Program-made: the position numbers and the translations under genes
Shown: positions 18,052-33,274 of the stretch, one piece after another
Layout: each line of letters opens with the position of its first letter
Position numbering within the stretch: the first letter of the stretch is position 1
The notes under the pieces: model-generated
Told to the model about the DNA's origin: nothing
The model's database searches: none
The model's input: the letters and a program-made list of their open reading frames with translations, nothing else
IMG/VR virus record: IMGVR_UViG_3300048850_000064
Coordinates: 1 to 39,742 of that record
Length of the DNA: 39,742 bases
Strand: one strand, 5' to 3'
Origin: a virus
Taxonomy: Duplodnaviria; Heunggongvirae; Uroviricota; Caudoviricetes

Positions 18052-18054
18052 TTC

Positions 18055-19034: not shown

Positions 19035-19040
19035 AAATAA

Positions 19041-19093
19041 AGTCATCAGTGAATGATCTTTTTCAATGTCAAGTCTGCAAGACGAGCTATATA
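19041..19093 (+). promoter_or_regulatory. Degenerate operator plus GCTATA-type -10 upstream of phoH
   Basis: AGTCATCAGTGAATGATC at 19041-19058 and GCTATATA at 19086-19093 in an AT-rich spacer. Confidence 0.45.
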
Positions 19094-19139
19094 TTCGATA
19101 AGCTAGAGTGACTTAACTCCCTGCATATCGGAGCTTCAC

Positions 19140-20724: not shown

Positions 20725-20742
20725 GCATCCGACGCGCTCGAC

Positions 20743-20753
20743 GCTATAACGCA
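20743..20753 (+). promoter_or_regulatory. GCTATAACGCA promoter motif, copy 2
   Basis: Intergenic, upstream of the GAGGA RBS and ATG 20786. Confidence 0.6.
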
Positions 20754-20785
20754 CGACGCAACAAGAACGACAATCGAGGACTACG

Positions 20786-21073
20786 ATGAATTACGAGCAG
20801 CGCCCGCGCACCTTCGACCTTACCAGGCGTGACCGCGAGAAGCAGAAGATGGGCGGCTTGCGCCCGCGCAAGCCGAAAGAAAAGCGCTGGTCGCATCAGG
20901 ACGATCTCGAGGCCCTGAAGGGCAAGGGCATCATCCTCAATCTCAATGACGGCAGCAGCTATACCGGCATTCTCATCGACGCGGATCAGTTCACTTTGAA
21001 GATCCAGGTCGAGAACGTGTCTTCTGCTATCACTGTTTTCAAGTCAGTAATGACTGACTACAGGGGAAACTGA
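20786..21073 (+). CDS. Hfq/Sm-like RNA-binding protein with a basic N-terminal arm
   Basis: SHQDDLEALKGKGIILNLNDGSSYTGILIDADQFTLKI...TVFKSVM aligns by eye with E. coli Hfq [41 protein letters not shown]...MVYKHAI. Confidence 0.6.
   Translation: MNYEQRPRTFDLTRRDREKQKMGGLRPRKPKEKRWSHQDDLEALKGKGIILNLNDGSSYTGILIDADQFTLKIQVENVSSAITVFKSVMTDYRGN
21025..21059 (+). promoter_or_regulatory. Operator and possible -10 embedded in the 3' end of the Hfq-like gene, upstream of the helicase
   Basis: TGCTATCAC (21025-21033), then AGTCA-GTAA-TGACT-GACT (21042-21059), in an AT-rich codon patch. Confidence 0.6.
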
Positions 21074-21074
21074 C

Positions 21075-22430
21075 ATGAGCGCAGCCCTGGAATTGGAAGA
21101 CGACGAGGATATCGGCGGCCCGGCCTACGAGTTCGACCTCGAATTCCAGAAGAAGATCGTCACGCTGCTCCTGCGCGACACCCAGTTTGCGCTGCGCGCC
21201 AAGGATCTCGTCGAGCCTGACTATTTTCTCGAAAAGGCCCACGGCTTCATCGTTTCGGTGATTAAGGACTTCGTTTCGACCTACAAGACCGTGCCCGATC
21301 GCGCCATCGTGCCGACGCTCATAAAGGACGAAATCGCTAAAAGACGAATTCGCGACGACCTCAAGGAGCCGATCAAGGACGCGCTGCGCGAAGGCCTGTC
21401 GAAGAAGGCCGACCTCTCCGGCTCGGCCTTCATTCTCGGCAAGGTCGGCGACTTCGCCAGGCACCAGGCGATCGAGAAGGCGATGATCGAGTCGATGAGG
21501 CTGCTCGAGAAGGGCGACTTCGCCGGCATCGAGAAGATCCAGAAGCGCGCCTTCAGCGTCGGCAAGGAAGTCGAAGGCGAGGAATACGACTACTGGAAGG
21601 AGATCGAGAGCCGCACCAAGGTTCGCGAGGACTTCAAGGCCGGCATCCTGGTTAGGAACGGCATCACGACCGGCATTTCCGAGTTCGACGCCCACCTCTA
21701 TCACGGCGGCTGGGGCCGGCAGGAACTGTCGCTGATCATGGGCGCGGCCAAGGCCGGCAAGTCGCTGTCGCTTGGCGAGTTCACCAAGAACGCCTCGCTT
21801 GCCGGATTCCAGACCTTCTATGCGTCCTGCGAAGTCTCGACCAGGATCATCGCCGATCGTATCGACGCGGCGCTTTCCGACACGGCCATGCGGCTGTTGA
21901 AGGACGATCCCGCGACCGTGCGCGCCAAGATCAAGGCGGCCGAGGCGAGGGCAGGGGCCTTCAAGATGCGCGACTTCGCATCCGGCACACTGAAGCCCTC
22001 GCAGCTTCACCGGATCATCGACAACTACCGCTCGGAAGGCATCATCTTCGACCTGGTCGCGGTCGACTACGCCGACATCATGGCCGCGGAATACCGCTCC
22101 GACAATCTGATCGACAATATGCGCTCGATCTATATCGACCTGCGCGCCATCGCCTGGGAGTTCAATCTCGCACTGCTGACCGCGACGCAGACCAACCGCG
22201 AAGGCGCCAAGAAGGCAACGGCCAAGGCCACCGACGTTGCCGAAGACTTCAACAAGATCCGCACGGCCGACGTCGTGCTCGGCATCAACGCGACCGATGA
22301 CGAGAAGGCATCGGGCGAGGCGCGCATCACCTGGGTCGCGTCCCGTAACTCTGAAGACGGCTTTTCCTTCCGCATCAGACAGGACCGCGAGAAACTTAAA
22401 TTTGTAACGGCGATCCTCGGCAAGGAGTGA
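21075..22430 (+). CDS. dnaB: Replicative DNA helicase, DnaB/T4 gp41-like (SF4)
   Basis: Walker A GAAKAGKS, SCEVS, VAVDYADIM Walker B, TATQTNREG, AEDFNKIRTAD, SRN. Confidence 0.9.
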   Translation: MSAALELEDDEDIGGPAYEFDLEFQKKIVTLLLRDTQFALRAKDLVEPDYFLEKAHGFIVSVIKDFVSTYKTVPDRAIVPTLIKDEIAKRRIRDDLKEPIKDALREGLSKKADLSGSAFILGKVGDFARHQAIEKAMIESMRLLEKGDFAGIEKIQKRAFSVGKEVEGEEYDYWKEIESRTKVREDFKAGILVRNGITTGISEFDAHLYHGGWGRQELSLIMGAAKAGKSLSLGEFTKNASLAGFQTFYASCEVSTRIIADRIDAALSDTAMRLLKDDPATVRAKIKAAEARAGAFKMRDFASGTLKPSQLHRIIDNYRSEGIIFDLVAVDYADIMAAEYRSDNLIDNMRSIYIDLRAIAWEFNLALLTATQTNREGAKKATAKATDVAEDFNKIRTADVVLGINATDDEKASGEARITWVASRNSEDGFSFRIRQDREKLKFVTAILGKE

Positions 22431-22492
22431 GGCGACCGGGTGCGGAATCCGGGAACCAACGCATATTCGCCATGAGCGATTAGGAGGCACAA

Positions 22493-23626
22493 GTGGATTT
22501 TGCCGAAGTCGAGCGTGAGCTCGACATGGAGTTTTTCTTCGAGCGCGAGAGCCTCGCCTACAAGATCGGGCGCGGCAGCTCCGGCATGCAGATCAACGCC
22601 AAGCACTGCCCGGCCTGTGGCGACGGCCGCTGGCGCACCTATTTCGGCGTCGACACCGGTCGCGGCAACTGCTTCGTCTGCAATGAGAGCTTCACCAAGG
22701 TCAGGTTCCTGCACTTTCATTTCGGCCACAACAACGACTGGCGCGAGACGGGCCGGGTCGCCGCCGAGCTGTTGAAGGAGCAGGGCTGGCGACCGAAGCG
22801 CATCATCACGGCCGCGGTCGAGGTCGGCGAGGTTAGGCTGCCCTATAGCAGCGAGCTGCCGCTTGCGAGCGGCGAGAACCTCGCCTATCTCGAAAATCGC
22901 GGCATCACCGGCGACTACACCAAATATTTCCACCTGCGCTGGTGCGAGGTCGGCTTCTGGCTCTACCGGCATGAAAGCGGCGAACTCAGGAAGCAGAACT
23001 TCAACGACCGCGTCATCATCCCGGTGTTCGATCTCGACGGCACCCTGGTCACCTTCCAGGGCCGCGATATCTCCGGCCGCTCCGAGAACAAGGATCTCGA
23101 GTTCCCGGTCCAGAAATACCTGTTCCCGAAGATGCTGCCGGGCACGGGCCGATTCCTCTTGAACGGCCAGAACGTCCACCTGACCAAGGATGTCGCGATG
23201 GGCGAGGGCGCTTTCGACGTCATCGCCCTGAAGATCGCCTTCGACCAGGAGGTGTCGCTGCGCCATGTCGTGCCGATCGGCTCGTTCGGCAAGCATCTGT
23301 CCTATGGCGCGCTCGACGGCAACGACCAGCTCGGCCGGCTGCTGAAACTGAAGGCGGCCGGCGTCGAGCGGGTGACGATCATGTGGGACGGCGAGGAAAA
23401 GGCGCTGACCTCGGCACTCGACGCGGCCAAGCTGATCACCGGCATTGGTATGGTCGCGCGCATCGGCCTGCTGCCGCCCGGCAAGGATCCGAACGAAGTG
23501 CCGCCCGAGGTTACCATCCGCGCCTATTACGAGGCGCGCACCTGGAACTCGAAGCTCGATCTGAAGTGGCGTCTGCAGAACCCATACTCGGCGCGGTATC
23601 GGCGGAACTACTTTTCCAGTCATTAA
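22493..23626 (+). CDS. dnaG: DNA primase (zinc-binding domain plus TOPRIM)
   Basis: GTG start after AGGAGG. CPAC...CFVC zinc domain, YLENRGI, DRVIIPV.D.DG.LV.FQGR, EGAFD, WDGE and KDPNE TOPRIM motifs. Confidence 0.88.
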   Translation: MDFAEVERELDMEFFFERESLAYKIGRGSSGMQINAKHCPACGDGRWRTYFGVDTGRGNCFVCNESFTKVRFLHFHFGHNNDWRETGRVAAELLKEQGWRPKRIITAAVEVGEVRLPYSSELPLASGENLAYLENRGITGDYTKYFHLRWCEVGFWLYRHESGELRKQNFNDRVIIPVFDLDGTLVTFQGRDISGRSENKDLEFPVQKYLFPKMLPGTGRFLLNGQNVHLTKDVAMGEGAFDVIALKIAFDQEVSLRHVVPIGSFGKHLSYGALDGNDQLGRLLKLKAAGVERVTIMWDGEEKALTSALDAAKLITGIGMVARIGLLPPGKDPNEVPPEVTIRAYYEARTWNSKLDLKWRLQNPYSARYRRNYFSSH

Positions 23627-23661
23627 TGAATGATCACCCGTCGCACGCTTGCTATAACGCA
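23618..23661 (+). promoter_or_regulatory. Operator plus GCTATAACGCA promoter motif, copy 3
   Basis: AGTCA-TTAA-TGAAT-GATC (23618-23635) overlapping the primase stop. TGCTATAACGCA at 23650-23661. Confidence 0.65.
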
Positions 23662-23694
23662 TGCAGAGACACAAAGAGAGAAAGGATTGAGCGA

Positions 23695-24222
23695 ATGAGC
23701 GCTTATCCGATGACCGTTCAGAAGGTCTATCTGGAGCATGTGGGCGGAACCAAGTTTTACGCCCTGACACTGATTTTCAACAGCAACGACAAGGCGCTTT
23801 TCATTCGGCGCTGGGGTCGCAAGGGCGTCTTCGGCGACATGATCGTCGAGGAGCACAACACCCACAAGGCCGGCGTCGCCGCCTACGAGAAGCTGCTGCG
23901 CGAAAAGAGCAGCGGCCGCAAGGGCTACGAGGTCAAGAGCGAAGGTCAGGACGACGTTCATGACGGCGTCGACGAGCTGCGGCGCGTCGTCGGTCTGGCC
24001 CAGTGGGCGAAGCTGTCGCCCAAGGCCCTCAAGCATATCGATCCGGCGATCGACACGACCGGCGTGCGCGAGCCCGATCCGCCGCGGTTCGATGAGAACG
24101 GCGACTATCTCGGCGAGGCGCCGGTGCGCAAGGTCGAGATCACCGAGGAGATGGTCGAGGCCGACAAGCGCGCCCGCATGGAGAGCGCCTACAGCTCCAA
24201 CCCGAAGTTCGGCATGTTCTGA
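23695..24222 (+). CDS. WGR-domain protein
   Basis: ATG 23695 after AAGGA. GTKFY.L.......F.RRWGRKG..G......A..AYEKLLREK...KGY is the WGR pattern. Ends YSSNPKFGMF. Confidence 0.75.
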   Translation: MSAYPMTVQKVYLEHVGGTKFYALTLIFNSNDKALFIRRWGRKGVFGDMIVEEHNTHKAGVAAYEKLLREKSSGRKGYEVKSEGQDDVHDGVDELRRVVGLAQWAKLSPKALKHIDPAIDTTGVREPDPPRFDENGDYLGEAPVRKVEITEEMVEADKRARMESAYSSNPKFGMF

Positions 24223-24503
24223 TGGACGAACTCCTCAGATCGTTACGCGGGGAGGCGCATAATCTCGAGGGAAGTGAGGTGACTGTCTGGCTTTCCAAGA
24301 GGTCGGCCGAGCTCGCATCGCATCCCGATCTCGACGCGATTTCCACGATCCTCGAGGATATCGGGACCATCGAACACGGACCCCACCAGGTCCGCGTGGT
24401 CAGCGCCCGCGTTCGCACCGTGATCCGACGTGCTCTTGCCCGGCGTGATGTCGAGCGGCGCGAGCGGCTCTACGAAAACAACTCAAAATACGGAATGTTC
24501 TGA
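24222..24503 (+). CDS. Hypothetical protein with shared C-terminal motif
   Basis: TGATG-coupled on both sides. Ends YENNSKYGMF. Confidence 0.65.
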   Translation: MDELLRSLRGEAHNLEGSEVTVWLSKRSAELASHPDLDAISTILEDIGTIEHGPHQVRVVSARVRTVIRRALARRDVERRERLYENNSKYGMF

Positions 24504-25075
24504 TGGCACAGGTTTCGTTTCAGAAGCGGGTGACGCTGTCCTACCGCAACAAGTTCACATTCACCTGCCCGATCTTCAATTCGAAGACGGAGATGGGCGC
24601 CTGCATGAAGCTGCGCGATCTCGTCTGGGCCGGCGCACAGGTCGACGTCCGGCGCGGCTGCCAGGCGGCTATGGGCTGCAGCATGTGCCCGGTCGCGGCA
24701 CTGGTCTCCATGCACATCTACAACAACAACTGGGACAATGACTTCCACGGTTCGATCGAGCCGAAGGAAGGCAAGCTGCACGCCCAGGTGCTCGATCGCG
24801 TCGCCCGCGTCATTCCGCGCGAGGACATCGTCAAGAAGCTCGGCCTGTCCGAGACCGAGCACAGTCTTCTCTATTCGGCGCGCGAACGCATTGCCGAGCA
24901 GCTCAAGACCGCTCCGGGCGAGAAGCCGAAAGCCGCATCCGATTACGAGGCGCCGGCGCGCGCATCCAAGCCCAAGCCGAAGAAGTCGGCGGCTCCCGCG
25001 CCAAAGACCGAAGACGCAGTCGCGACCGCAGCCAAGAGCGGCGATCTCGCCGCTGCAATCAACGCCGCAGCATAA
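24503..25075 (+). CDS. Hypothetical Cys-containing protein with a Lys/Ala/Pro-rich tail
   Basis: TCP...AC...GCQAAMGCSMCP (possible metal site). TGATG-coupled. Confidence 0.65.
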   Translation: MAQVSFQKRVTLSYRNKFTFTCPIFNSKTEMGACMKLRDLVWAGAQVDVRRGCQAAMGCSMCPVAALVSMHIYNNNWDNDFHGSIEPKEGKLHAQVLDRVARVIPREDIVKKLGLSETEHSLLYSARERIAEQLKTAPGEKPKAASDYEAPARASKPKPKKSAAPAPKTEDAVATAAKSGDLAAAINAAA

Positions 25076-25087
25076 CAAGGAGACAAA

Positions 25088-26470
25088 ATGCTGAGATTGA
25101 TCGAGGAGATCGCGGCCGAGTCCGGCCGCCTGGAAAAAGAAAAGCTGCTCGCCGAGCTCGCGGCGACGGACGAAGGCAAGTTCGTCCTCAAATGGACCTA
25201 CGACCCGTTCATCACCTATGGCGTCACGCCACCTCGCCAGCCTGGCACCGGTAAGTTCGAGTTCCGGCCGAGCCTGGTCAAGCCGCTGCTCGAGAAGCTC
25301 GCCGCGCGCAAGCTCACCGGCAATGCGGCGCAGGCCGAGATCGCCGAATGCATGAACGTGCTGAACGAGCGCGGCGCCGAGCTGCTCTGGCGCATCCTGT
25401 CGAAGGATCTCAAATGCGGCATTGGTGACGTGACGATCAAGAAGATGGCGCCGGGCCTGGTGCCGACCTTCTCGGTCATGCGCGCCCACAAGTTCGAGGA
25501 GAAGCGGATCAAGAAATGGCCGCAGATCGTCGAGCCGAAGCTCGACGGCTACCGCTTCACCTTCCTCTGTCGCGGCGGGCACGGTGGCTTCTTCTCGCGC
25601 TCGGGTATCCGTCAGCCGGCCGCCGACCACCTGGTCGAGCCGATGATCGCGACTGCCTTCAAGGCGGCGCATGGCAGCGAGGCGATTTGCGAGACGCTCG
25701 CCGAGATGAAATCGTTCAACGATGACCGCGCCAACCTCAATTTCATGGCCGACGGCGAAATGCTGATGGACGGTCACTTCAACGAGAACGGTGCGCTCCG
25801 GCGTCAGGACGAGCAGGCCGAGGGTGCGAAGTTCCATATCTTCGACCTGATGCCCTATGCCGACTTCGACGCCGTCGGCTCTGTCGGCCGACCCTATATG
25901 GAGCGGCGCACGCTTGTCGAGGAATTCGTCAAGCACGCAGCGACCCCGGAGATCACCAAGACGCCGCGCTATTTCGCCAATTCGTTCGAGGACATTCACA
26001 ATCTCTACGGCATGTTCCGCGAGCGCGGCCTCGAGGGCGCGATGGTCAAGAACCCCGAGGGCCTCTACGACAAGAAGAAGTCCTATGGCTGGCTCAAGAT
26101 CAAGGCCGAGGAAAGCGAGGATCTGCCGATCGTCGGAGCCTATCCCGGCGAGCCGAATACCAAATACGAACACTGCCTCGGCGGAGCTATTGTCAGGCGG
26201 CCCAACGGCGTCGAGGTGCGCGTAGGCGGTGGCTGGAGCGATCAGCAGCGCGAGGAGGTGTGGAAGGCCTATCAGGAGGATCTGGCCGAGCTCGAGCGCA
26301 ACGGCGCTACGCTCGAAGATCCGAGTTTCGATGGCCGGCCGCGCTTCCTGCTTCGCATGATCGAGGTGCTCTATCACGAGGAAACGCCCGACGGCTCGCT
26401 GCGTCACCCGCGCTTCAAGTGCTTCCGCGACGACAAAGCCGGGGAGGTCGAAGAAAAAGTTGCTGCCTGA
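25088..26470 (+). CDS. ATP-dependent DNA ligase
   Basis: Motif I EPKLDGYR, III ADGEM, IIIa FHIFD, IV EGAMVK, V WLKIK, VI LRHPRF. AGGAG RBS. Confidence 0.95.
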   Translation: MLRLIEEIAAESGRLEKEKLLAELAATDEGKFVLKWTYDPFITYGVTPPRQPGTGKFEFRPSLVKPLLEKLAARKLTGNAAQAEIAECMNVLNERGAELLWRILSKDLKCGIGDVTIKKMAPGLVPTFSVMRAHKFEEKRIKKWPQIVEPKLDGYRFTFLCRGGHGGFFSRSGIRQPAADHLVEPMIATAFKAAHGSEAICETLAEMKSFNDDRANLNFMADGEMLMDGHFNENGALRRQDEQAEGAKFHIFDLMPYADFDAVGSVGRPYMERRTLVEEFVKHAATPEITKTPRYFANSFEDIHNLYGMFRERGLEGAMVKNPEGLYDKKKSYGWLKIKAEESEDLPIVGAYPGEPNTKYEHCLGGAIVRRPNGVEVRVGGGWSDQQREEVWKAYQEDLAELERNGATLEDPSFDGRPRFLLRMIEVLYHEETPDGSLRHPRFKCFRDDKAGEVEEKVAA

Positions 26471-26475
26471 CGTGA

Positions 26476-26500
26476 TCAGTGATCACTGAATTGCTATAAT
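26476..26500 (+). promoter_or_regulatory. Extended -10 promoter with an operator-like palindrome
   Basis: Perfect palindrome TCAGTGATCACTGA (26476-26489), then TG-C-TATAAT (26492-26500), just after the ligase stop. Confidence 0.6.
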
Positions 26501-26506
26501 ACCCAC

Positions 26507-26595
26507 ATCTCCGGATCCCTGACGACTTGGGTCAAAGTCGCTTTCTTGTGTCTCTCTCAAAGGTCGCCCCTAATCCCTGGGCGACCTTTTTTTTT
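26507..26595 (+). ncRNA. Predicted trans-acting small RNA (~90 nt)
   Basis: Bounded by the TATAAT promoter and a strong intrinsic terminator. Internal hairpin CGACTT/AAGTCG (26523-26540) and a single-stranded pyrimidine tract at 26541-26558. No ORF. The start site is inferred from -10 spacing. Confidence 0.55.
26559..26595 (+). terminator. Intrinsic terminator
   Basis: AAAGGTCGCCC/GGGCGACCTTT 11-bp stem, 9-nt loop, T9 run. Abuts the repC stop on the other strand. Confidence 0.85.
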
Positions 26596-27697
26596 AATGC
26601 GCTCGTCGCCGGCGCAGCGCGCGGATCTCCTCGACGAGCTCGATCCGGCCATCGCCGACCATCCGGGCATAGGTCCGGAAGTAGCCGCCGAAATTGCGGA
26701 TCTTCTTGCCGCCGTCGTCGTCATAGGCCTGCAGCACCAGGAAGAAGGCCACGGCAGCCGCGACCGGCCCCAGTTTCTCGCAAGCCTCGCTCCAGGCGCT
26801 TTCATGCGTGCCATAGGTGCCGCGCAACCGTCCGGCCGCTCGCACCAGGTCGCGACTATTCTCGACCTCGCCGGCAAGCGCGAAGGCGTCAGGGCAAGCC
26901 GCGGCCAGGTCGATCAGGTTGGGCACGGCCGGTGCCTCACCATTATCTCGCGGCCCTTTGTTACAAGACTGGTCAGGTGAATCGTTGTTGTTCTCTTTGA
27001 GGGGGCAATTCTTGCCGGCACAGGCGGCTTTATATCTTTCTTCGGCTTGCGCTTTGAGAGCTTGCCAGCGGGCCAGGGATGCGTCAGGAGCGACGTTTGC
27101 GTTGCGCCGCGGTGTCTGGCCCTGCTCGGCCTCGAATGCGCTCTCGAGGTCGTCTGCCGGCGCCTCCCATTCCTGGATCGCCAGGATCAGCTCCCTGACC
27201 GATCGCCGGCAGATGGTGATCTCGTCGAAGAGGTGCTCGATCGCCTCGCGCCTGACCTTCAGCCGCTCGACCAGCGCTCCGAACTCGGCCTTCCGGGCGA
27301 CGATCGGGGAGAGGTCGAGGCCATAGGCGTCGATGATCTGGCCGCTCCGCGCGCGCCGGGCGTAGCGCTTGCCATTTGGCGAGTCCTTCGACGTGACGAC
27401 GCCGCGGTCGATCAGTCCTTTGATCGCATAGCGGATCGTCCGCTCGGAAAGACCGGTGCGCTCCATCAGGAACTCGTTCGAAGGCCAGACCAGCAACCGG
27501 CCCTGGATCGGTTCGCCCTGGTAGCAGCCGACGAGCTGGTCGAGGACGAAGCGCAGCGCCGGCTTCAGCGCCAGTGCCTGCACCGCGAGCCGACCGGCCG
27601 CAAACAGCTCGTTACGACTGACCTCGTCCGGCGCCTGGGCAACAAGCGCTATTGCCGGCGAAATCTTTCGCCAGCCAGTGTTCTCATGAGTTTGCAC
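26594..27697 (-). CDS. repC: RepC-family plasmid replication initiator
   Basis: WPSN..L..R.GLSERT.R..I..L...G.....DSPNGKRYARR...G.I..AYG.DL.PI..R..EF is the hallmark RepC N-terminal domain. C-terminal ACPD and I.NFGGY.R motifs. GTG start with a GGGGA RBS. Confidence 0.88.
   Translation of the reverse strand: MQTHENTGWRKISPAIALVAQAPDEVSRNELFAAGRLAVQALALKPALRFVLDQLVGCYQGEPIQGRLLVWPSNEFLMERTGLSERTIRYAIKGLIDRGVVTSKDSPNGKRYARRARSGQIIDAYGLDLSPIVARKAEFGALVERLKVRREAIEHLFDEITICRRSVRELILAIQEWEAPADDLESAFEAEQGQTPRRNANVAPDASLARWQALKAQAEERYKAACAGKNCPLKENNNDSPDQSCNKGPRDNGEAPAVPNLIDLAAACPDAFALAGEVENSRDLVRAAGRLRGTYGTHESAWSEACEKLGPVAAAVAFFLVLQAYDDDGGKKIRNFGGYFRTYARMVGDGRIELVEEIRALRRRRAH
26940..27050. other. 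Candidate replication origin inside repC
   Basis: AT-rich patch in the inter-domain linker of repC containing a GANTC site (26979-26983). In repABC replicons oriV lies in such a region. Boundaries are approximate. Confidence 0.4.
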
Positions 27698-27704
27698 GTC
27701 TCAA

Positions 27705-27748
27705 TCCCCAAATCGGGACAAAGCTTCGCCGTCTCTCCGCGAAGAGAG
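27705..27748 (-). promoter_or_regulatory. Structured repC leader (S-element-like)
   Basis: Hairpin TCCC/GGGA (27705-27718) pairs the repC SD. Two mutually exclusive stems: CTTCGC/GCGAAG (27724-27744) and CTCTC/GAGAG (27733-27748). Confidence 0.4.
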
Positions 27749-27777
27749 TTGACAAATCAGTGGTGATTCGGGATAAC
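27749..27777 (+). promoter_or_regulatory. ctRNA promoter, antisense to the repC leader
   Basis: TTGACA (27749-27754), 17 bp, GATAAC (27772-27777), with a GANTC site (27765-27769) in the spacer. Confidence 0.8.
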
Positions 27778-27783
27778 CAGAGT

Positions 27784-27852
27784 GCATGTAGGTGTTCCCG
27801 AACACCGAGATTTTAAACGCTCTGAGACTGCAATCTCAGAGCGTTTTGCTTT
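27784..27852 (+). ncRNA. Counter-transcribed RNA (ctRNA) controlling repC
   Basis: About 65-70 nt between the promoter and terminator, with two hairpins (GGTGTTC/GAACACC and a 13-bp terminator stem). Position, size and orientation match repABC ctRNAs. Confidence 0.75.
27815..27852 (+). terminator. ctRNA intrinsic terminator
   Basis: AAACGCTCTGAGA/TCTCAGAGCGTTT 13-bp stem, 6-nt loop, then TGCTTT. Confidence 0.8.
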
Positions 27853-27858
27853 GTCGAG

Positions 27859-28077
27859 TTACCTAAGTCCTTCGATCCAATTGTTGACAGCAACGGCGAC
27901 CAGCTCCGAACGGTTGCGAAACCGACCGGACTTCACGAACTCATCCAGTTTTGCCTTTAAGCTCTCGTCGAGCCAGATTTGCATCTGGGTCTCGCCTTTG
28001 GCTTGGCGCGATTTCCGAAACTTCTCGGCCCGCCGTTTTGCTCCACTGTCCTGAAAACTCATGACCTGTTCCAACAC
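27859..28077 (-). CDS. Ribbon-helix-helix (CopG/MetJ-like) DNA-binding protein upstream of repC
   Basis: QMQIWLDESLKAKLDEFVKSGRFRNRSELVAVAV fits the RHH pattern. The start could be the ATG at 28062. Confidence 0.65.
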   Translation of the reverse strand: MLEQVMSFQDSGAKRRAEKFRKSRQAKGETQMQIWLDESLKAKLDEFVKSGRFRNRSELVAVAVNNWIEGLR

Positions 28078-28179
28078 ACGTTGCTAGTTACGTGCCTAGT
28101 GATGACCGATTCGTCATGATTCTGGAAGCCCTACGGCGCCGCGCGTCAAAATTGCAGGGCATACACGCTTTGATTGCAA

Positions 28180-28207
28180 AAGTCGCATAAGACTACTTAT
28201 GGAACTT
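28180..28207 (+). other. dif-like XerCD recombination site (28 bp)
   Basis: AAGTCGCATAA-GACTAC-TTATGGAACTT has the 11-6-11 layout. Inner CGCATAA and TTATG are identical to E. coli dif (GGTGCGCATAA-TGTATA-TTATGTTAAAT). Confidence 0.7.
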
Positions 28208-28242
28208 TATGGTAAAGTGCTAAAATTATCGCCAGCAGATTC

Positions 28243-28281
28243 ATTCATTGTTGACTTAATATCGCCAAGTCAGTAATGAGT
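28243..28281. promoter_or_regulatory. Tandem operators upstream of the repressor candidate
   Basis: ATTCA-TTGT-TGACT (28243-28256) and AGTCA-GTAA-TGAGT (28268-28281). Confidence 0.6.
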
Positions 28282-28322
28282 GATTCCATAACTCTTTACC
28301 GGGATACGTCCCGCAGTTGCGT

Positions 28323-28358
28323 TGCTATATAGAGACACAGACGCGACACAAGACACAA
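28323..28358 (+). promoter_or_regulatory. TGCTATATA -10 and a leader with three GACACA repeats
   Basis: TGCTATATA (28323-28331), AGAGACACA (28331-28339), GACACAAGA (28345-28353), AGACACAA (28351-28358). Confidence 0.5.
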
Positions 28359-28392
28359 CGAGAGTTTACATAGGAAGGGGATTAATAAACCA

Positions 28393-28827
28393 ATGCCAAC
28401 CGTTAGGAAGCCTTACGCGGAAACCCGCGCGGCACAGTTTCTTGAAAAGCGCATCGAGCAGCTTCAGAGCCGTAAGAGCCAGCGCGAGATCGCTCAGGAC
28501 ATCGGCTTCGCTCAGCCGCAGGCACTGTCGATGATGAAGACTGGCGAGCTGAAGATCCCGCTCGACCGTGTTCCCGCTTTTGCTCGCGCCCTTGAAGTTG
28601 ATGCCGCAAACCTTTTCCGCATGGTGCTGGAACAGCATCTGCGTGGCGAGGAGCTCACCAAGACCATCAACGAGATTTTCGGCGTGGTGGTGTCCAAGAA
28701 CGAGCGTCAGTTCATCGAGCTGATCCGCAATGTGTCGAACGATACCGACCCGGCACTGACCGACAAGCTCGCAGCCGAGCTGACCACGGTGCTCCAGGAG
28801 AACCTACCCGCTACGACCGGCGCCTGA
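28393..28827 (+). CDS. XRE/Cro-CI-type HTH regulator, master repressor candidate
   Basis: SQREIAQDIGF..PQALSMMKTG..KIPLDRVPAFARALEVD HTH. Monocistronic, with its own terminator and upstream operators. Confidence 0.8.
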   Translation: MPTVRKPYAETRAAQFLEKRIEQLQSRKSQREIAQDIGFAQPQALSMMKTGELKIPLDRVPAFARALEVDAANLFRMVLEQHLRGEELTKTINEIFGVVVSKNERQFIELIRNVSNDTDPALTDKLAAELTTVLQENLPATTGA

Positions 28828-28831
28828 AGAC

Positions 28832-28874
28832 GCAAGAAAAAGCCACTGCGGGGTTGGTAGTGGCTTTTTCTTGC
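28832..28874. terminator. Bidirectional intrinsic terminator
   Basis: Perfect 16-bp inverted repeat GCAAGAAAAAGCCACT/AGTGGCTTTTTCTTGC with an 11-nt loop. Confidence 0.85.
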
Positions 28875-28882
28875 TTCTGAGG

Positions 28883-28900
28883 AGTCAGTAATTACTGACT
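28883..28900. promoter_or_regulatory. Operator (perfect 18-bp palindrome)
   Basis: AGTCAGTAATTACTGACT, flanked by GANTC sites at 28882 and 28901. Confidence 0.75.
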
Positions 28901-28951
28901 GATTCCTTAATCTTTCCATCAACACACAAAGTAAAACAATAAGGACTTGCA

Positions 28952-29167
28952 ATGACGCTGACCAAGGACAAGATCGACCGCGTAGCTGAAATCACCTACG
29001 ACGAGGCCGTAGCAGAAATCGTAAAGCTTAGTGAAGTAAAACGCCATACGGTCGGTGGAACAGAAGTGTTCGCCGGTCTGCATCCCGAGCTTGGTCCTAT
29101 CCATATTGTTTTGCCTGTAATGGGCGGAGGGATGCTGTTGTTGCCTTTTGCTATCCATAATTTTTAA
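28952..29167 (+). CDS. Small AT-rich hypothetical protein between two operators
   Basis: TAAGGA RBS, 71 aa, hydrophobic C-terminus, codon use unlike the flanking genes. Confidence 0.55.
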   Translation: MTLTKDKIDRVAEITYDEAVAEIVKLSEVKRHTVGGTEVFAGLHPELGPIHIVLPVMGGGMLLLPFAIHNF

Positions 29168-29174
29168 TGTTACT

Positions 29175-29196
29175 AGTCATTCATAACTGACTGACA
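29175..29196. promoter_or_regulatory. Operator upstream of the cobT-like gene
   Basis: AGTCA-TTCATAAC-TGACT-GACA. Confidence 0.65.
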
Positions 29197-29211
29197 CAGA
29201 GGGATAGCAAG

Positions 29212-31917
29212 ATGAAGAAGGAGATCCAGGAGCTTCGTGAGGTCATCGCGAAGCTTGTGCCGCTGTTGACGGGCAAAGGTCTGGTCGTGACCCAGCGCGG
29301 CACGAAAGCCTATGTCAGCGTCCACCGCGTCACCAAGAAGCCGGAGCGGGTCAATATTCCCAACGTCTCCGACAATGCCGACGCGGACTTCATCCGCGCC
29401 ATCCAGGGCTTCATCGACCATGAGTGCGCCCACGTCCTCTATACGGACTGGGAATCCTATCTGCTGCCCGGCGATCCGGAAGATCCGAAGATCAAGCGCC
29501 AGCAGAACATGGTCAACATCATTGAGGACACGTTCATCGAGCGCCGCATCGTAGTGGATCTACCCGGCGCCCGGCGCAACCTGTCCGACACGCGCCGATT
29601 CTTCCTCGAGCGCGTCACCGGCCCGGCACTTGCCAGCGCCGCAACACCCCAGGAACAGCTTTCTTACCTCATCGTGCCGATGATGCGTGCGCTCGCCGGC
29701 CATGAGGAAATGCAGGAGTTCATGGACAAGAACGGCTACTGGTCGCTGCCACTCATTAAGGCGCTGCGCGACAAGATGCCGGAAAAGTTGGTCAAGTCGC
29801 TGCCGGAACTGAAGCACACCCGCGAATGCGTCGCTGTCGCCCTCGAGATCGACCAGATCCTCTATCCGCCACCGCCTGCCCCGCCCGTCCTCGAGTCGGT
29901 CGATCCCGCAGAAGTCTCCACGGCCGGCAACGACAAGGTGTCGATCTATGGCGATCATCTGCGCGAAGTGCGCGAAGTCCGGATCGGCGGCAAGCGTTGC
30001 CCGCGCTGGAAGACGGTGCTGACGTCCGCGGAAGCGGCCAAGACTGGCGACCTTGCGGCCGCGCTCGGCGGTGGCAGTCATATTCTGGCGATCACGCCGA
30101 AGCTCGATCCTGGCGTCTATGACGTCGAGGTCGTCACCGACGCCGGCCGCGGCGTGCTGCCGGCCGCCTTCACCTTTGTCGAACCGCCGGCAAAGCCCGC
30201 GTCCGAAGAGGACGAGGACGGCAAGAGCGAGGACAAGCCCGACAAGAAGGCCGACGAGGGCGATGGCAAGGGCGAGCGCGACCACAGCGAAAGCGAGCCG
30301 GGCGACGAAGGTGCCGGCGCATCCAGCGATGACGCCGATGACGACGAGAGCGAAGGTGATTCCTCTGCTGACAAGGGCAAGCCTGGCAAGCCCAAGAAGG
30401 GAGACAAGGAGAAGGATGAAGGCGCCGGCGACGAAAAGGACGAGGACGATCCCGCCGCTGGGTCGGACGAATCTTCTGACGATGGCAAAACTGGAGATGA
30501 AGAGGACGACAAGGACGCCGACGACGCCGGTGCTGACGAAGATGACGCTGAATCGGGGTCTGATGAAGGCTCTGACGACGAAGACGGCGATGCGGGTGAA
30601 GATGACGTGGCTCCGGAGGCTGACGAGGACGACGAGCGCGACGGTGAAGGTGCCGGTGACGGAGAGGACGAGGACGAATCTGAGGATAGCGATGGAGCTG
30701 CTGCTTCGTCCGACGCCGCTGATGTCGATGAAGACGAGGATGACGGCGCTGGCGATGCGGGCTCGGGCGATGAGGAAGACGCCGACGAGGACGACGGCTC
30801 GGGTGATGTAGACGACGGCGAGGCCGGCGAAGACATCCAGTTCGACGATCACGACTGGGACGCCGCTTCGCTGTCGGATGACGATTCCGACGAGGAGGGC
30901 GAACCTGGCGTCGGTGGCGACAAGTCGTCAAAGTCCATGTTCGATCTGGACGACGACGCGCTCGAGGATGCGGATCTGTCGAAGGCGATCTGCGTGATCG
31001 TCACCAATGACGCGATCAATTCCATGAGCCGTTCGGACTACACGGTCTATACCCGCGAGTTCGACCGCATCGAGCACTACGACGCCCCGCCTGCTGGCGA
31101 CGCCTATATCCCTCGCCTCGAGGAAGAGGTGCGATCGATGGTCGGCAAGATGCAGAAGGACATCGAGCGCATGCTCGCCGCCCAGAGCCAGGTGATCAGG
31201 AACCCTGGTCTGCGCTCCGGCCGCCTGCACGCCCCGAATCTGCATCGGTTGATGGCCGGCGACGACCGCATCTTCTACCGCAAGGCCGAGCACAAGTCGA
31301 AGGACACGGCGGTCACGCTGATGATCGACAACTCCGGCTCGATGAACGGCGCCAAGTGCCAGACCGCGATGGTCTCCGGCTATGCGCTGTCGTCCACGCT
31401 CGATCGCTGCAACATTCCGCACGAAGTCCTCGGCTTCACGACCGGCGGGTTTGACGTGCCGAGGTCGATCTATGAAGGGATGCTGAACGAAATGCGCGAG
31501 ACCGGCATTCGCTTCAACAGGCAGATCCCGATTCACATTCCGATCTACAAGGACTTCGACGAACGGATCTCGCCTATGGTCAAGCGCCGCATCGCGACGA
31601 TGGCCTATAGCCAGGTCGGACTTGCCGGCAACATCGACGGCGAGTCCCTCGAATATGGCGCAGTCAGGCTGTTGAAGCGACGCGAGAAGCGCAAGGTTAT
31701 GATCGTCCTGTCCGACGGTCATCCGGTCGAGGCACGCGACGCCTCGGCGCACTTGAAACTGGTCGTTAAAGATCTGACGAAGATCGGCATAGAAATGATC
31801 GGCATCGGCATCAAGGATAATGCCGTCCGCTCCTTCTATCCGAAGCACGTCGTCCTCAACAACCTCAACGACCTGCCCGGTCAGGTGATGAACGAGCTCA
31901 AGGCGATTCTCGCCTGA
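29212..31917 (+). CDS. cobT: CobT-like VWA protein with HExxH domain, inserted IPT/TIG domain and acidic linker
   Basis: N-terminal DHECAH...NIIED..IE. IPT/TIG-like block at about 29884-30186. D/E-rich tract. C-terminal VWA with MIDAS DNSGS...T...LSDG. The symbol denotes the family only. Confidence 0.8.
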   Translation: MKKEIQELREVIAKLVPLLTGKGLVVTQRGTKAYVSVHRVTKKPERVNIPNVSDNADADFIRAIQGFIDHECAHVLYTDWESYLLPGDPEDPKIKRQQNMVNIIEDTFIERRIVVDLPGARRNLSDTRRFFLERVTGPALASAATPQEQLSYLIVPMMRALAGHEEMQEFMDKNGYWSLPLIKALRDKMPEKLVKSLPELKHTRECVAVALEIDQILYPPPPAPPVLESVDPAEVSTAGNDKVSIYGDHLREVREVRIGGKRCPRWKTVLTSAEAAKTGDLAAALGGGSHILAITPKLDPGVYDVEVVTDAGRGVLPAAFTFVEPPAKPASEEDEDGKSEDKPDKKADEGDGKGERDHSESEPGDEGAGASSDDADDDESEGDSSADKGKPGKPKKGDKEKDEGAGDEKDEDDPAAGSDESSDDGKTGDEEDDKDADDAGADEDDAESGSDEGSDDEDGDAGEDDVAPEADEDDERDGEGAGDGEDEDESEDSDGAAASSDAADVDEDEDDGAGDAGSGDEEDADEDDGSGDVDDGEAGEDIQFDDHDWDAASLSDDDSDEEGEPGVGGDKSSKSMFDLDDDALEDADLSKAICVIVTNDAINSMSRSDYTVYTREFDRIEHYDAPPAGDAYIPRLEEEVRSMVGKMQKDIERMLAAQSQVIRNPGLRSGRLHAPNLHRLMAGDDRIFYRKAEHKSKDTAVTLMIDNSGSMNGAKCQTAMVSGYALSSTLDRCNIPHEVLGFTTGGFDVPRSIYEGMLNEMRETGIRFNRQIPIHIPIYKDFDERISPMVKRRIATMAYSQVGLAGNIDGESLEYGAVRLLKRREKRKVMIVLSDGHPVEARDASAHLKLVVKDLTKIGIEMIGIGIKDNAVRSFYPKHVVLNNLNDLPGQVMNELKAILA
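30205..30903 (+). repeat. Low-complexity Asp/Glu-rich coding tract
   Basis: About 230 codons dominated by GAC/GAT/GAG/GAA/GGC, in frame within the cobT-like gene. Confidence 0.9.
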
Positions 31918-31934
31918 ACTTTTCCTTTTGGTAA

Positions 31935-31993
31935 GCGTCGGGTTCAGTCATTACTGACTTGCAACCCGACGCAAAAGTCAGTAATTAATGACT
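31935..31993. promoter_or_regulatory. Two operators, the first nested in a larger inverted repeat
   Basis: GCGTCGGGTT (31935-31944) and AACCCGACGC (31963-31972) enclose AGTCA-TTAC-TGACT (31946-31959). Second site AGTCA-GTAATTAA-TGACT at 31976-31993. Confidence 0.7.
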
Positions 31994-32041
31994 GTATTCG
32001 CGTTTGAGAAGCGCGATCTGAGAGAACGGAGACACAAGAGC

Positions 32042-33274
32042 ATGGCCGACGCTGCCGAACTGAACGACGACCCGATTATCTGCCAGATTGACAATCAGAA
32101 GTGCCATTCGATCCAGCTTCACATTTCCAAATATCATTCGGAGGAATGGACCCTCGAGCGCTACAAGGCCGAGTATCCGGGCGCTCCGCTCCTGTCGGAA
32201 AAAGCCAAGCGCCGCATCGCCGAGCAGCGCGCCGCGAAAGCCGCCGGCTCCTCCCACGAGGAGGCTGTCGCCATGCGTAAGGCCTATTTCCACGAGCTGT
32301 TCGATCTTGGCACCAAGGCCAAGGCCGCCTTCAACAAGATGGGTCATCCGATCGAAGTGACGGTCGTCGATTCCCATAGCGAGCTGTCGGCGCCCTACAT
32401 CGAGACGGTCAATCCGAACTACGTCTTCAACATCGATCTCACCAAGAAGGTGCTGATCGGCATGGAGCTTCGAAAGCCCGTCTATCTCTGGGGCTATCAC
32501 GGCACCGGCAAGACGACCCTGTTCGAGCAGATCGCCGCCCGCACGCGCCGGCCGTTCATGCGCGTCCAGCACACGATCAACACCGAAGAAAGCCACATCC
32601 TCGGCCAGTATGTCGTGCGCTCCAAGCCCGTCGAGGTCGAGGAGCTCGGCGCCGACGGCAAGATCGTAAAGGTCATCAAGCAGCAGACCGTCACCGAGTT
32701 CCAGCTCGGCCCGCTGCCGCTGGCGATGCTCGAAGGCATGGTCTACTGCGCCGACGAATACGACTTCGCAATGCCGTCGGTCGTCGCCGTCTACCAGTCG
32801 GTGCTCGAGGGCAAGGCGCTCGTCATCAAGGATGCGCCGCCCGAGTATCGCGTGATCAAGCCGCATCCGAACTTCCGCTTCTGCGCGACCGGCAACACCA
32901 ACGGCGTCGGCGACGAGACCGGGCTCTATCAGGGCACCTTGATCCAGAACGCCGCGAACTATTCGCGCTTCGCGATCACCGAAGAGGTGACCTACATGGA
33001 TCCGAAGATCGAGGAGAGCGTCATCGTCGGCCAGGCCGGCATCGATCGCGACGACGCTGCCAAGCTCGTCAAGTTCGCCAAGGATATTCGCACGTCCTTT
33101 GCCGACGGCAAGATCGGCATGACGGTGTCGCCGCGCGAGCTGATCAACGCCGCCGAACTCGGGCTCGTCATGGGCGGTGACTGGACGAGCGGCGTGAAGC
33201 TCGCATTCGCCAACCGTCTGTCGCGCACCGACAAGAAGGTCGTCGAGGAATACGCCCAGAGGATCTTCGGATGA
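32042..33274 (+). CDS. cobS: CobS-like (MoxR-family) AAA+ ATPase with an N-terminal zinc-finger-like domain
   Basis: ATG 32042 after GGAG. YVFN..LTK.V, Walker A GYHGTGKT, Walker B ADEYD, HPNFRF.ATGNT.G.GD..GLY.GT..QN.AN..RF. The symbol denotes the family only. Confidence 0.88.
   Translation: MADAAELNDDPIICQIDNQKCHSIQLHISKYHSEEWTLERYKAEYPGAPLLSEKAKRRIAEQRAAKAAGSSHEEAVAMRKAYFHELFDLGTKAKAAFNKMGHPIEVTVVDSHSELSAPYIETVNPNYVFNIDLTKKVLIGMELRKPVYLWGYHGTGKTTLFEQIAARTRRPFMRVQHTINTEESHILGQYVVRSKPVEVEELGADGKIVKVIKQQTVTEFQLGPLPLAMLEGMVYCADEYDFAMPSVVAVYQSVLEGKALVIKDAPPEYRVIKPHPNFRFCATGNTNGVGDETGLYQGTLIQNAANYSRFAITEEVTYMDPKIEESVIVGQAGIDRDDAAKLVKFAKDIRTSFADGKIGMTVSPRELINAAELGLVMGGDWTSGVKLAFANRLSRTDKKVVEEYAQRIFG

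Follow-up and report, generated by a model that had tools for sequence, protein, structure and literature searches.

VpdS of vibriophage VP882 and PreS of phage lambda are trans-acting phage small RNAs (sRNAs) that use the Hfq of the host (PMC12197685; bioRxiv 10.1101/2024.10.31.621285). Like DicF, they are short phage transcripts with a Rho-independent terminator and a U tail that pair imperfectly with the translation-initiation regions of several mRNAs, phage genes included, and no phage chaperone is known for any of the three. The phage sRNAs described so far all borrow host Hfq (PMC12197685), and phage-host conflict includes competition for Hfq. In the phage-plasmids P1 and P7, the C4 antisense RNA of immI represses translation of a regulatory gene, besides repressor and operators; C4 arises by processing of a leader, that of the operon under its control, and has one target, within that operon. 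AbcR1 and AbcR2 are alphaproteobacterial anti-Shine-Dalgarno sRNAs, Hfq-dependent in rhizobia, whose unpaired pyrimidine-rich core acts on the purine-rich ribosome-binding sites of many mRNAs. Sm/Hfq-fold genes on mobile elements are known from isolated annotations: a plasmid-encoded Hfq-like protein is reportedly mentioned in a study of Thermococcus plasmids. Another is gp39 of mycobacteriophage Adephagia, called Hfq-like from its predicted structure (PMC11373665). Our searches of open-access papers and bioRxiv preprints turned up no account of a phage-encoded Hfq that acts with an sRNA.

The window analyzed here, the whole stretch of 39,742 nucleotides, is part of a 115.8-kb (115,768 bp) alphaproteobacterial RepC phage-plasmid of the RHEph10/B1VFA-like lineage, a poorly studied group. 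Its features (Table 1) suggest a model in which a dedicated promoter just past the ligase gene yields an sRNA of about 89 nt. The 18-nt CU-rich core of this sRNA would pair with purine-rich leaders bearing GAGACACA(A) near the Shine-Dalgarno sequence and start codon, namely those of the WGR-ligase operon, an HTH regulator, a MoxR-like ATPase and about five operons outside the window, where pairing would most likely block translation initiation. The Hfq-like protein of the same element would probably bind U-tailed RNAs, the candidate sRNA included. Taken as a whole, this combination of a post-transcriptional sRNA layer on phage leaders with a divergent Hfq-like protein in one element strikes us as evenly balanced between right and wrong. 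Unlike the phages of VpdS, PreS and DicF, this element has its own Hfq-like gene, and the predicted targets are its own early and replication operons. Unlike C4, the candidate sRNA has its own promoter and has at least eight leaders as predicted targets, all remote from it; it is not processed from the leader of a repressed operon, nor are its predicted targets in the same transcript. It shares an unpaired pyrimidine-rich core with AbcR1 and AbcR2 and has no sequence or Rfam relationship to them; unlike them, it is phage-borne and its predicted targets are phage leaders. Unlike Adephagia gp39 and the Thermococcus plasmid protein, the Hfq-like protein is one of a large conserved family, has a fixed place in the genome and comes with a candidate cognate sRNA.

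Table 1. Features of the window that bear on the proposed sRNA and the Hfq-like protein.
Feature	Position	Strand	Remarks
GCTATAA box, promoter of Hfq-like gene	20743..20749	+	member of the GCTATA[AT] class
Hfq-like Sm protein, 95 aa	20786..21073	+	basic N-terminal arm, residues 1-35; Sm core, residues 36-95
Perfect operator palindrome AGTCAGTAATGACTGACT	21042..21059	.	within 3′ end of Hfq-like ORF; GCTATCA before it
Extended -10 promoter TTGCTATAA of WGR-ligase operon	23649..23657	+	operator-like palindrome just upstream, about 23618-23635
Purine-rich WGR leader with AGAGACACAA, predicted sRNA pairing site	23665..23686	+	duplex -20.5 kcal/mol, p=0.012 vs shuffled cores
Operon of WGR-domain gene, two small genes and ATP-dependent DNA ligase	23695..26470	+	Pfam WGR and ligase domains
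Operator-like palindrome, core TCAGTGATCACTGA	26474..26491	.	abuts sRNA promoter; 4 mismatches to operator consensus
sRNA promoter TTGCTATAAT	26491..26500	+	TG + one base + TATAAT, perfect extended -10; TGcTATAAT at 26492-26500
Candidate sRNA, about 89 nt	26507..26595	+	5′ end inferred from promoter only
sRNA hairpin 1	26523-26540	+	from fold
sRNA unpaired CU-rich core, 18 nt	26541-26558	+	from fold
sRNA terminator	26559-26586	+	GC stem GGTCGCCC/GGGCGACC
sRNA U9 tail	26587-26595	+	only run of T>=8 in the window
Promoter TTGCTATAT and HTH leader with AGAGACACA	28322..28364	+	GACACAA twice; predicted pairing p=0.006
HTH transcriptional regulator, candidate repressor	28393..28827	+	PHROG transcription regulators match
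MoxR/CobS-like AAA+ leader, GGAGACACAAGAG ending 2 nt before ATG 32042	32021..32040	+	predicted pairing
AAA_5 / CbbQ_C ATPase gene	32042..33274	+	domain match

The sRNA would add a post-transcriptional layer on top of promoter and operator control. Plus-strand operons would fire from extended -10 promoters (TTGCTATAA/T) with a palindromic operator alongside, and genome-wide, GCTATA[AT] boxes number 27 on the plus strand and 4 on the minus strand. The -10 box of the sRNA is of this class as well. The palindrome inside the Hfq-like ORF and the GCTATCA before it are probably the DnaB promoter and operator; RHph_Y2_11, which is without the Hfq-like gene, has the same box-plus-palindrome layout ahead of DnaB. 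Operators at 28268 and 28883 lie on either side of the HTH regulator gene.

The preliminary description had proposed an Hfq-like protein, and structure prediction for the product of 20786-21073 bears this out. The AlphaFold (AF2) model shows a helix (residues 37-43) followed by five strands, with a core pLDDT of 76-84, and so has the N-terminal helix and five-stranded bent beta-sheet of the Sm fold. The best 50 Foldseek matches in the PDB are all Hfq, with target-normalised TM-scores of 0.66-0.86 and rmsd of about 1-3.5 A over 56-67 columns. Sequence similarity is marginal: neither the Hfq nor the LSM model of Pfam reaches its gathering score in the window protein (LSM, E=0.0016 and 18.6 bits, cut-off 23.4). 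The family profile matches Hfq of Listeria at E=1e-3 and of S. aureus at E=2e-3, and Pfam Hfq is matched by 23 of 78 family members at E<=0.1 (best E=3.2e-5). From its sequence and modelled fold, we regard the window protein as a distant, non-canonical relative of Hfq, within a family of at least 264 representative sequence clusters.

If the protein handles RNA as bacterial Hfq does (PF17209; 1KQ2, 3RER, 4NL3, 6GWK), then the residues of the RNA-binding faces should be kept. Besides the common fold and a like size (80-100 aa), the phage protein has equivalents of Q8, D9, D40, Q41, F42 and K56. Specifically, Q8, Q41, F42 and K56 of E. coli Hfq align with Q38, Q68, F69 and K86, of which K86 is invariant in the 78 family sequences and Q38 and F69 are kept in at least 90%. 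As these are the proximal-face residues that hold U tails, the protein probably binds U-tailed RNAs such as the candidate sRNA, and that it binds RNA of some kind is likely. The Sm2-like motif, [FY]K[HS], has the histidine of Hfq (H57) in roughly half of the family and Ser87 in the window protein. Unlike bacterial Hfq, the phage protein has Ala for F39 and a basic N-terminal arm instead of a C-terminal tail, and its family has an invariant motif of its own, KPKxWSHQDDL, and is confined to one phage-plasmid lineage. The arginine rim is reduced to Lys45 and Lys47 (R16, R17 and R19 align with K45, G46 and G48), and distal-face Y25, I30 and K31 align with N52, S57 and S58; at both sets of positions the family is variable. 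With His57 replaced by Ser and rim and distal residues lost, classical three-face chaperoning is uncertain. We also considered the A-rich leaders as (ARN)n sites for the distal face and rejected this, given that the three distal residues are not conserved.

Does this protein serve the sRNA? In the proposed mechanism it would form a ring, bind the sRNA and aid it. We put binding in vivo at about an even chance; that regulation needs the protein is doubtful, and equally tentative is the wider proposal of a private module throughout the lineage, in which a phage Hfq paralogue binds, and is required for, an sRNA that silences translation of replication and early operons and a regulator. Another possibility, to which we lend similarly limited credence, is that the sRNA regulates leaders with host Hfq or without a chaperone and that the phage protein does another job. 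It may assist the DnaB-primase replication module, with primers, single-stranded DNA or the helicase as its ligand; alternatively, it may be a takeover factor in competition with host Hfq over the sRNAs of the host. In every context examined, the gene order PhoH, phrog_2500 protein, Hfq-like protein, DnaB is constant, the carriers being RepC phage-plasmids of ~112-118 kb in Alphaproteobacteria. DnaB follows the Hfq-like gene directly, often with a 4-nt overlap at the DnaB start, an overlap also compatible with a replication role; because the genomes are syntenic throughout, the fixed position is weak functional evidence. No operator palindrome with three or fewer mismatches lies beside the Hfq-like promoter (16898-21042), which suggests a timing different from that of the sRNA, whose promoter is flanked by one. 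The loss of canonical distal and rim residues and the use of host Hfq by the described phage sRNAs likewise favor a separate job for the phage protein.

The preliminary description had proposed a self-contained circuit, and the comparison with relatives does not bear this out. RHph_Y2_11, RHEph10 and a Pararhizobium plasmid have no Hfq-like gene and keep an sRNA, with promoter and terminator, at the equivalent place, so the circuit is not demonstrably self-contained. As, moreover, a tblastn search of 50,697 phage records with the Hfq-like protein gave zero matches, a phage chaperone is not generally required. Set against a separate job for the protein are the family-wide conservation of its U-tail residues and the behavior of the sRNA itself. 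In the Hfq-less clade, pairing of the sRNA with WGR, HTH and MoxR leaders was undetected (p=0.08-0.43; -10.4 and -13.7 kcal/mol), and the leader word complementary to the RHph_Y2_11 sRNA (GAGATCACA) has no exact plus-strand copy, so that no leader regulon is evident in that phage. Thus, the leader-targeting form of the sRNA coincides with the Hfq-like gene, within what is a single clade. The protein could mean an insulated regulatory circuit, a means of hijacking the sRNAs of the host or, for the Sm fold, a new role in DNA replication.

Whichever chaperone is involved, the case for the sRNA stands on its own evidence. The region was said to hold an sRNA with a U9 terminator tail, and we do find the T9 run directly after a GC stem, with a promoter upstream whose box lies 6 nt from the predicted start. 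The fold is more stable than expected, at z = -3.5 to -3.7, with the core unpaired, as it is in the centroid folds of the window sRNA and of nine relatives. The unit holds no plausible ORF. In the whole 115.8-kb genome, it is the one unit that joins a CU-rich tract to a strong terminator and a T run of five or more. Judged on these features, 26507-26595 is a convincing sRNA gene, and we infer that it is transcribed. Among sequencing runs, one of soil metagenome DNA contains the stretch in full and is probably where it came from. In a soil metatranscriptome run, about 14% of the sampled words of the window were found, and contigs of the RNA library span parts of 19.5-21.4 kb and 28.2-33.5 kb and none of 26260-28195; for the sRNA region by itself, no RNA run was listed. 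Since small RNAs, transcript starts and strands are invisible in such contigs and DNA may have been carried over, this coverage is uninformative on expression of the sRNA.

Searches by sequence gave little for the sRNA: within the window no Rfam family reaches its gathering score, matches around the sRNA and repC are at chance level only, and blastn of the region against phage and plasmid collections returned no match. As the sRNA is too divergent for DNA search, its counterparts were located by position and architecture. One CU-core-plus-terminator unit is present in the replication-module equivalent of each of twelve relatives (L012, L016, L018, L021, L022, L025, L026, L027, L028, L029, L032 and L033). 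The sRNAs of relatives all fold in the order hairpin, unpaired core, terminator and U tail, the last running from U5 to U10. Compensatory changes keep hairpin 1 intact, as between CGACU/AGUCG and CCACU/AGUGG; its conservation was judged directly and from single-sequence folds, MAFFT having misregistered its 3′ arm between sequences. A palindrome equivalent to that at 26474-26491 precedes the sRNA in L012, L033, L016, L018, L022 and L025, and the promoter box recurs 5′ of it in L028 and L032, with an equivalent in L012.

One could read 26507-26595 without any trans-acting RNA, as only the bidirectional terminator and 3′ end common to the ligase operon and repC, its complementarity to leaders being a by-product of low complexity, pyrimidine-rich on one side and purine-rich on the other. 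The unit does lie at the 3′ end of the ligase operon, between the convergent ligase and repC genes, with U9 overlapping the repC stop by two bases, and a terminator is expected there. Moreover, GACACAA is not enriched within the window (3.0 copies expected and 5 observed, a count reached in 21 of 100 shuffles), and the excess of pairing over shuffled cores, taken genome-wide, is modest. We nonetheless consider this reading improbable. The promoter and its equivalents in relatives speak against it, as do the conserved 5′ hairpin and unpaired core, neither of which is needed for termination. In Methylobacterium, repC is no longer adjacent, yet the unit remains beside the ligase gene, and cores and leaders co-vary beyond composition, as described below. 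That the sRNA is real and acts on phage leaders is, on our assessment, likely.

If a trans-acting sRNA uses this core, then its complement should mark leaders. On the plus strand of the 115,768-bp genome, GAGACACA occurs 8 times, against 1.8 +/- 1.2 expected in Markov simulations (n=200, maximum 6 copies). Each of the eight belongs to a 5′ leader and is at most 60 nt upstream of a start codon, and seven end 1-22 nt before it (the copy at 28332 ends 53 nt before); often the motif serves as, or adjoins, the Shine-Dalgarno sequence. The sole minus-strand copy is the sRNA core. The leaders of the WGR-ligase operon, HTH regulator and ATPase had been described as A-rich and sharing GACACAA, which is correct: they are 44-59% A against about 20% genome-wide, with plus-strand GACACAA at 23668, 28345, 28352 and 32031 and a single minus-strand occurrence, 26546-26552, within the sRNA.

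The preliminary description also proposed that the sRNA co-regulates these three leaders. Predicted pairing agrees, being better than for composition-matched controls in each (p=0.004-0.012), and it would repress translation. The MoxR-like leader is the best predicted plus-strand site genome-wide (-22.6 kcal/mol in the genome scan; -24.5 kcal/mol, p=0.004, in the shuffled-core test). Altogether 20 translation-initiation regions pair at -17 kcal/mol or below, against 8.3 +/- 4.5 for shuffled cores (p=0.017). This genome-wide enrichment is only moderate (p=0.017-0.033), and a CU-rich RNA pairs fairly generically with purine-rich Shine-Dalgarno leaders. The predicted targets are on other transcripts, 1.7 to about 40 kb from the sRNA. 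As the HTH protein is only a candidate repressor, the proposed part in a lysis-lysogeny switch would depend on its being one. The leader of the Hfq-like gene itself has ACAAGAA at 20761-20767, as had been noted; as an sRNA target we rejected it, for it does no better than shuffled cores (p=0.36).

If core and leaders pair, they should change together between relatives. Synteny of the WGR-ligase operon is kept in these, and in five genomes the cognate sRNA-WGR leader pairing is better than with shuffled cores (p=0.000-0.012). HTH and MoxR leader pairing is significant in the window and in Shinella, and pairing with DnaB leaders, used as controls, is not significant. Across eight genomes, the mean for cognate sRNA-WGR leader pairs is -22.4 kcal/mol, and that for all pairs is -18.3 (permutation p=5e-5, composition controlled for). 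In Shinella, both core and leaders are without CACA, in pure GA/CU, and the match is retained. Of the co-occurrence that had been proposed as a check, the link between sRNA and WGR leader holds, and that with the Hfq-like gene is not borne out, given the sRNA of Hfq-less relatives. Such shifts of the motif along with the core fit RNA-RNA pairing better than a fixed protein site. That GAGACACA is instead a site for the Hfq-like protein or a CA-rich translation enhancer, with the sRNA masking it or uninvolved, would suit its place near start codons and the repression by Hfq bound at A-rich ribosome-binding sites elsewhere (reportedly in Pseudomonas Hfq/Crc, and by direct Hfq binding for IS10 transposase), but is very improbable, as the motif is not conserved between relatives and the distal-face residues for A-rich RNA are lost.

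With pairing thus the preferred account of the leaders, the element offers a testable system: a protein family of at least 264 clusters, an sRNA for which a seed and eight or more target leaders are predicted and, as natural controls, relatives with and without the Hfq-like protein. The private module, if true, would be the first virus-encoded Hfq-sRNA pair, and the post-transcriptional control of the phage program would be independent of, or insulated from, the host Hfq network; a lineage of phages that bring an Hfq-like protein of their own would change the picture of reliance on host Hfq only. Even if protein and sRNA are unrelated, an anti-leader sRNA, conserved and co-evolving with its target, would still add a post-transcriptional layer to this group of phage-plasmids. 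Cultured carriers of relatives are Shinella zoogloeoides UPHL-collab-1 with plasmid CP132310, Phyllobacterium myrsinacearum AN3 and Methylobacterium oryzae H33R-06.

The contig measures 115,768 bp (~61% G+C), the window being its first 39.7 kb, and window positions 19-34 kb hold a replication and early-gene module. The module opens with a phrog_2500 protein, followed by the 95-aa ORF of the Hfq-like protein, a DnaB-like helicase and a primase; then come a WGR-domain gene, two small genes and an ATP-dependent DNA ligase, RepC with a ribbon-helix-helix gene ahead of it (minus strand), and finally an HTH regulator, a CobT/VWA protein and a MoxR/CobS-like AAA+ ATPase. The closest named relatives are Rhizobium phages RHph_Y2_11, RHEph10, N1_10 and B1VFA (115-122 kb), and RHEph10 is reportedly named in a survey of phage-plasmids. 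Further relatives are ~116-119-kb non-mobilizable plasmids of Shinella, Pararhizobium, Rhizobium and Methylobacterium. B1VFA has been reported as phage-plasmid-like (PMC12509600). Separately, soil metatranscriptome contigs, which are uninformative for small RNAs, match window parts 19484-21419 and 28196-33500 at >=99% (one, 28299-28674, spans the HTH gene); DNA carry-over is possible, and the matches hint that another soil sample contained this element, or one nearly identical, and that it may have been transcribed there.

Against Pfam, the Hfq-like protein gave a sub-threshold LSM match alone, and a word-indexed search of 5.8 billion proteins returned three close homologues. Exhaustive profile searching retrieved 264 representative clusters, of which 113 reached E <= 1e-10; the family consensus is KPKxWSHQDDLxALKGK...G.L..ADQFTLK...S..T.FK[S/H]A. 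Modelled with AlphaFold from the close homologues, the protein has one helix and five strands (core pLDDT 76-84), and all of its best 50 PDB structural matches are Hfq, from seven species including S. aureus, Listeria, E. coli, Pseudomonas, Caulobacter and Bacillus. The family profile reaches Hfq of Listeria (E=1e-3) and S. aureus (E=2e-3), and 23 of 78 family members touch Pfam Hfq. Together, the Sm-type model, structural matches and profile bear out the phage Hfq-like protein of the preliminary description. In the HMM alignment, E. coli Hfq Q8, D9, D40, Q41, F42 and K56 correspond to Q38, D39, D67, Q68, F69 and K86; at H57, the window protein has Ser and about half of the family His, and the window protein lacks the distal Y25, I30 and K31 and the rim R17 and R19. 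This pattern of matched and lost residues marks it as a distant, lineage-specific relative of Hfq, in which the uridine pocket looks preserved and the A-rich-RNA face does not. The profile also matches four long proteins in 5 to 17 separate stretches (P0083, 727 aa; P0102, 1679 aa; P0119, 2903 aa; P0129, 703 aa), which could be tandem Sm-like repeat proteins or a repeat artefact.

In all contexts examined, the Hfq-like gene is flanked by the gene of the phrog_2500 protein and by DnaB, whose start it often overlaps by 4 nt. Those contexts were 13 IMG/VR loci; three genome contigs, from Magnetospirillum molischianum, Phyllobacterium myrsinacearum and a Methylocystis MAG; three matching plasmids, of which two were inspected; and metagenome contigs with close and distant family members. 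It is missing from the Rhizobium phage clade and the Pararhizobium plasmid, which have an 88-118-bp gap at that place, and no phage record in the searched collection encodes it.

Features of the sRNA unit and of neighbouring regions in the window
Feature	Position	Strand	Remark
Operator palindrome, perfect, 18 bp, with GCTATCA box	21018-21059		inside 3' end of Hfq-like coding region, ahead of DnaB
Ligase stop codon	26470		sRNA unit directly after
Operator-like palindrome	26474-26491		ahead of sRNA promoter, abutting it
TTGCTATAAT	26491-26500		sRNA promoter; perfect TGnTATAAT extended -10 box
sRNA gene, candidate	26507-26595	+	
Hairpin 1	26523-26540		6 bp
sRNA core	26541-26558		18 nt, unpaired, CU-rich
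U9	26587-26595		after GC-rich terminator
Counter-transcribed-RNA-like unit	27750-27852	+	upstream of repC
Ribbon-helix-helix (CopG-type) gene	27859-28077	-	72 aa, directly upstream of repC
Symmetrical hairpin, A5/T5 flanks	28836-28870		just after HTH gene
Operator palindrome, perfect	28883-28900		follows the hairpin

The predicted sRNA with a U9 tail also held up, with a promoter box, hairpin and GC-rich terminator that make this a good candidate sRNA gene. The genome has 27 plus-strand and 4 minus-strand boxes of the form GCTATA[AT], most of them a short way before a gene, and the sRNA fold has z = -3.5. When both strands were scanned, without bias, for a >=70% pyrimidine tract followed by a strong hairpin and then a T run of >=5, the 115.8 kb gave exactly one site, the sRNA. 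The same scan found one plus-strand site each in the equivalent replication-module region of ten relatives' loci (L012, L016, L018, L021, L022, L025, L026, L028, L032 and L033), and relaxed settings added units in L027 and L029 and a weaker one in L017. All of these units share one fold type; hairpin 1 persists with differing sequences, and L016 and L029, for instance, differ by a compensatory swap of G-C to C-G. In Methylobacterium, the unit remains beside the ligase gene though repC has moved away.

The preliminary description had the sRNA co-regulating the repressor, the AAA+ ATPase and the WGR/ligase operon through a shared GACACAA. That motif is not enriched inside the window. Predicted pairing with the HTH, MoxR and WGR leaders beats shuffled cores. 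Genome-wide, GAGACACA has 8 plus-strand copies versus 1.8 +/- 1.2 (maximum 6) in Markov simulations, all 8 in 5' leaders; seven end 1-22 nt ahead of the start codon, and the copy at 28332 ends 53 nt ahead. The sole minus-strand copy is the sRNA core. When the genome was scanned for duplexes with the core, the plus-strand top site was the MoxR leader (32017), and 8 of the 25 top sites were translation-initiation regions. With 170 genes called crudely, the core pairs at <= -17 kcal/mol with 20 initiation regions, where shuffled cores reach 8.3 +/- 4.5 (p=0.017). Inside the window, the core is predicted to target the WGR-ligase operon, HTH regulator and MoxR ATPase; beyond it, the predicted targets include a small gene with a Metallophos nuclease-like gene after it, a 789-aa protein that matches HATPase_c weakly, and several uncharacterized genes. 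The Hfq-like gene's own leader in the window, in which an ACAAGAA had been pointed out, pairs at chance in the shuffled-core test (p=0.36) and is not credible as a target.

The strongest evidence is that sRNA cores and leaders vary between relatives and match within each genome. The window core UUGUGUCUCU matches leader AGAGACACAA, the Phyllobacterium core CUCUCUGUGU matches ACACAGAGAG, and the L012 core CUGUGUGUGC matches GCACACACAG; in Shinella, a pure CU repeat faces a pure GA repeat, with CACA on neither side. Cognate pairing between sRNA and WGR leader was better than with shuffled cores in five genomes (p=0.000-0.012), HTH and MoxR leader pairing was significant in the window and Shinella alike, and the DnaB leaders used as controls never paired significantly with the core. 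No site in the 20-22-kb loci of L022 and L033 pairs better with the core than the WGR leader does. When eight cores were set against eight WGR leaders (8 x 8 matrix), the cognate mean was -22.4 versus -18.3 kcal/mol overall, equalled in 1 of 20,000 permutations, a test that controls for base composition.

RHph_Y2_11, RHEph10 and Pararhizobium, which lack the Hfq-like gene, carry a promoter-plus-terminator unit at the equivalent position, with a related core (e.g. AUUGUGUCUCCUUUCC) and no GGGU-loop hairpin. As these cores have no detectable pairing with WGR, HTH or MoxR leaders (p=0.08-0.43), the leader-targeting form coincides with presence of the gene; since the relatives without it are one clade, this is a single evolutionary observation. 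The Hfq-like protein and the sRNA candidate, taken separately, are solid; that regulation by the sRNA requires the protein seems to us rather doubtful. The Rhizobium-phage-clade core GAUCUCCUUUCC (L001 14282-14301, L036 13378-13397 and L035 14962-14981, all loci without the gene) resembles the anti-Shine-Dalgarno 3' tail of 16S rRNA (GAUCACCUCCUUUCU), and therefore may be a general ribosome-binding-site mimic, not a leader-specific seed.

Hfq-fold genes on mobile elements were known earlier, e.g. Adephagia gp39, with no function or RNA partner (PMC11373665). The phage sRNAs VpdS, PreS and DicF use host Hfq (PMC12197685), and these and rhizobial anti-Shine-Dalgarno sRNAs are closer working analogues than P1 C4, first offered as the closest, to which the likeness is loose. 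In agreement with the preliminary description, no account of a phage Hfq-sRNA pair turned up in full-text searching of open-access papers and bioRxiv preprints.

The palindrome AGTCAGTAATnACTGACT gives 26 strand-matches in the window, at ~11 distinct places on or beside promoters, versus 0.02 expected. An operator-like palindrome abuts the sRNA promoter, and the promoter of the Hfq-like gene has none, also in L012, L028 and Shinella; because only one of the two promoters has such a site, the sRNA and the Hfq-like gene may be expressed at different times. Within the Hfq-like gene, the operator and box fall on the FKSVMTDY codons of the C-terminus, so that the Sm2 coding region likely doubles as DnaB promoter and operator. 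The homologous gene of L012 has an operator-like site 18 nt further upstream.

Around repC, the ribbon-helix-helix gene is kept in RHph_Y2_11 and labelled hypothetical in Shinella, B1VFA and RHEph10 records; its product may be a replication or copy-number regulator. The counter-transcribed-RNA-like unit, antisense to the repC leader, consists of TTGACA, 17 nt, GATAAC, then two hairpins and UUUUGCUUUG, with no Rfam match at threshold; RHph_Y2_11 has kept both its promoter and its terminator, and Shinella shares the terminator stem, with compensatory changes. In some relatives with the Hfq-like gene, tRNA genes (Met, Asn and Thr, or Asn alone) adjoin the repC 3' end (L017 16857-17713; L025 16962-17037). 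The symmetrical hairpin that follows the HTH gene resembles a bidirectional terminator.
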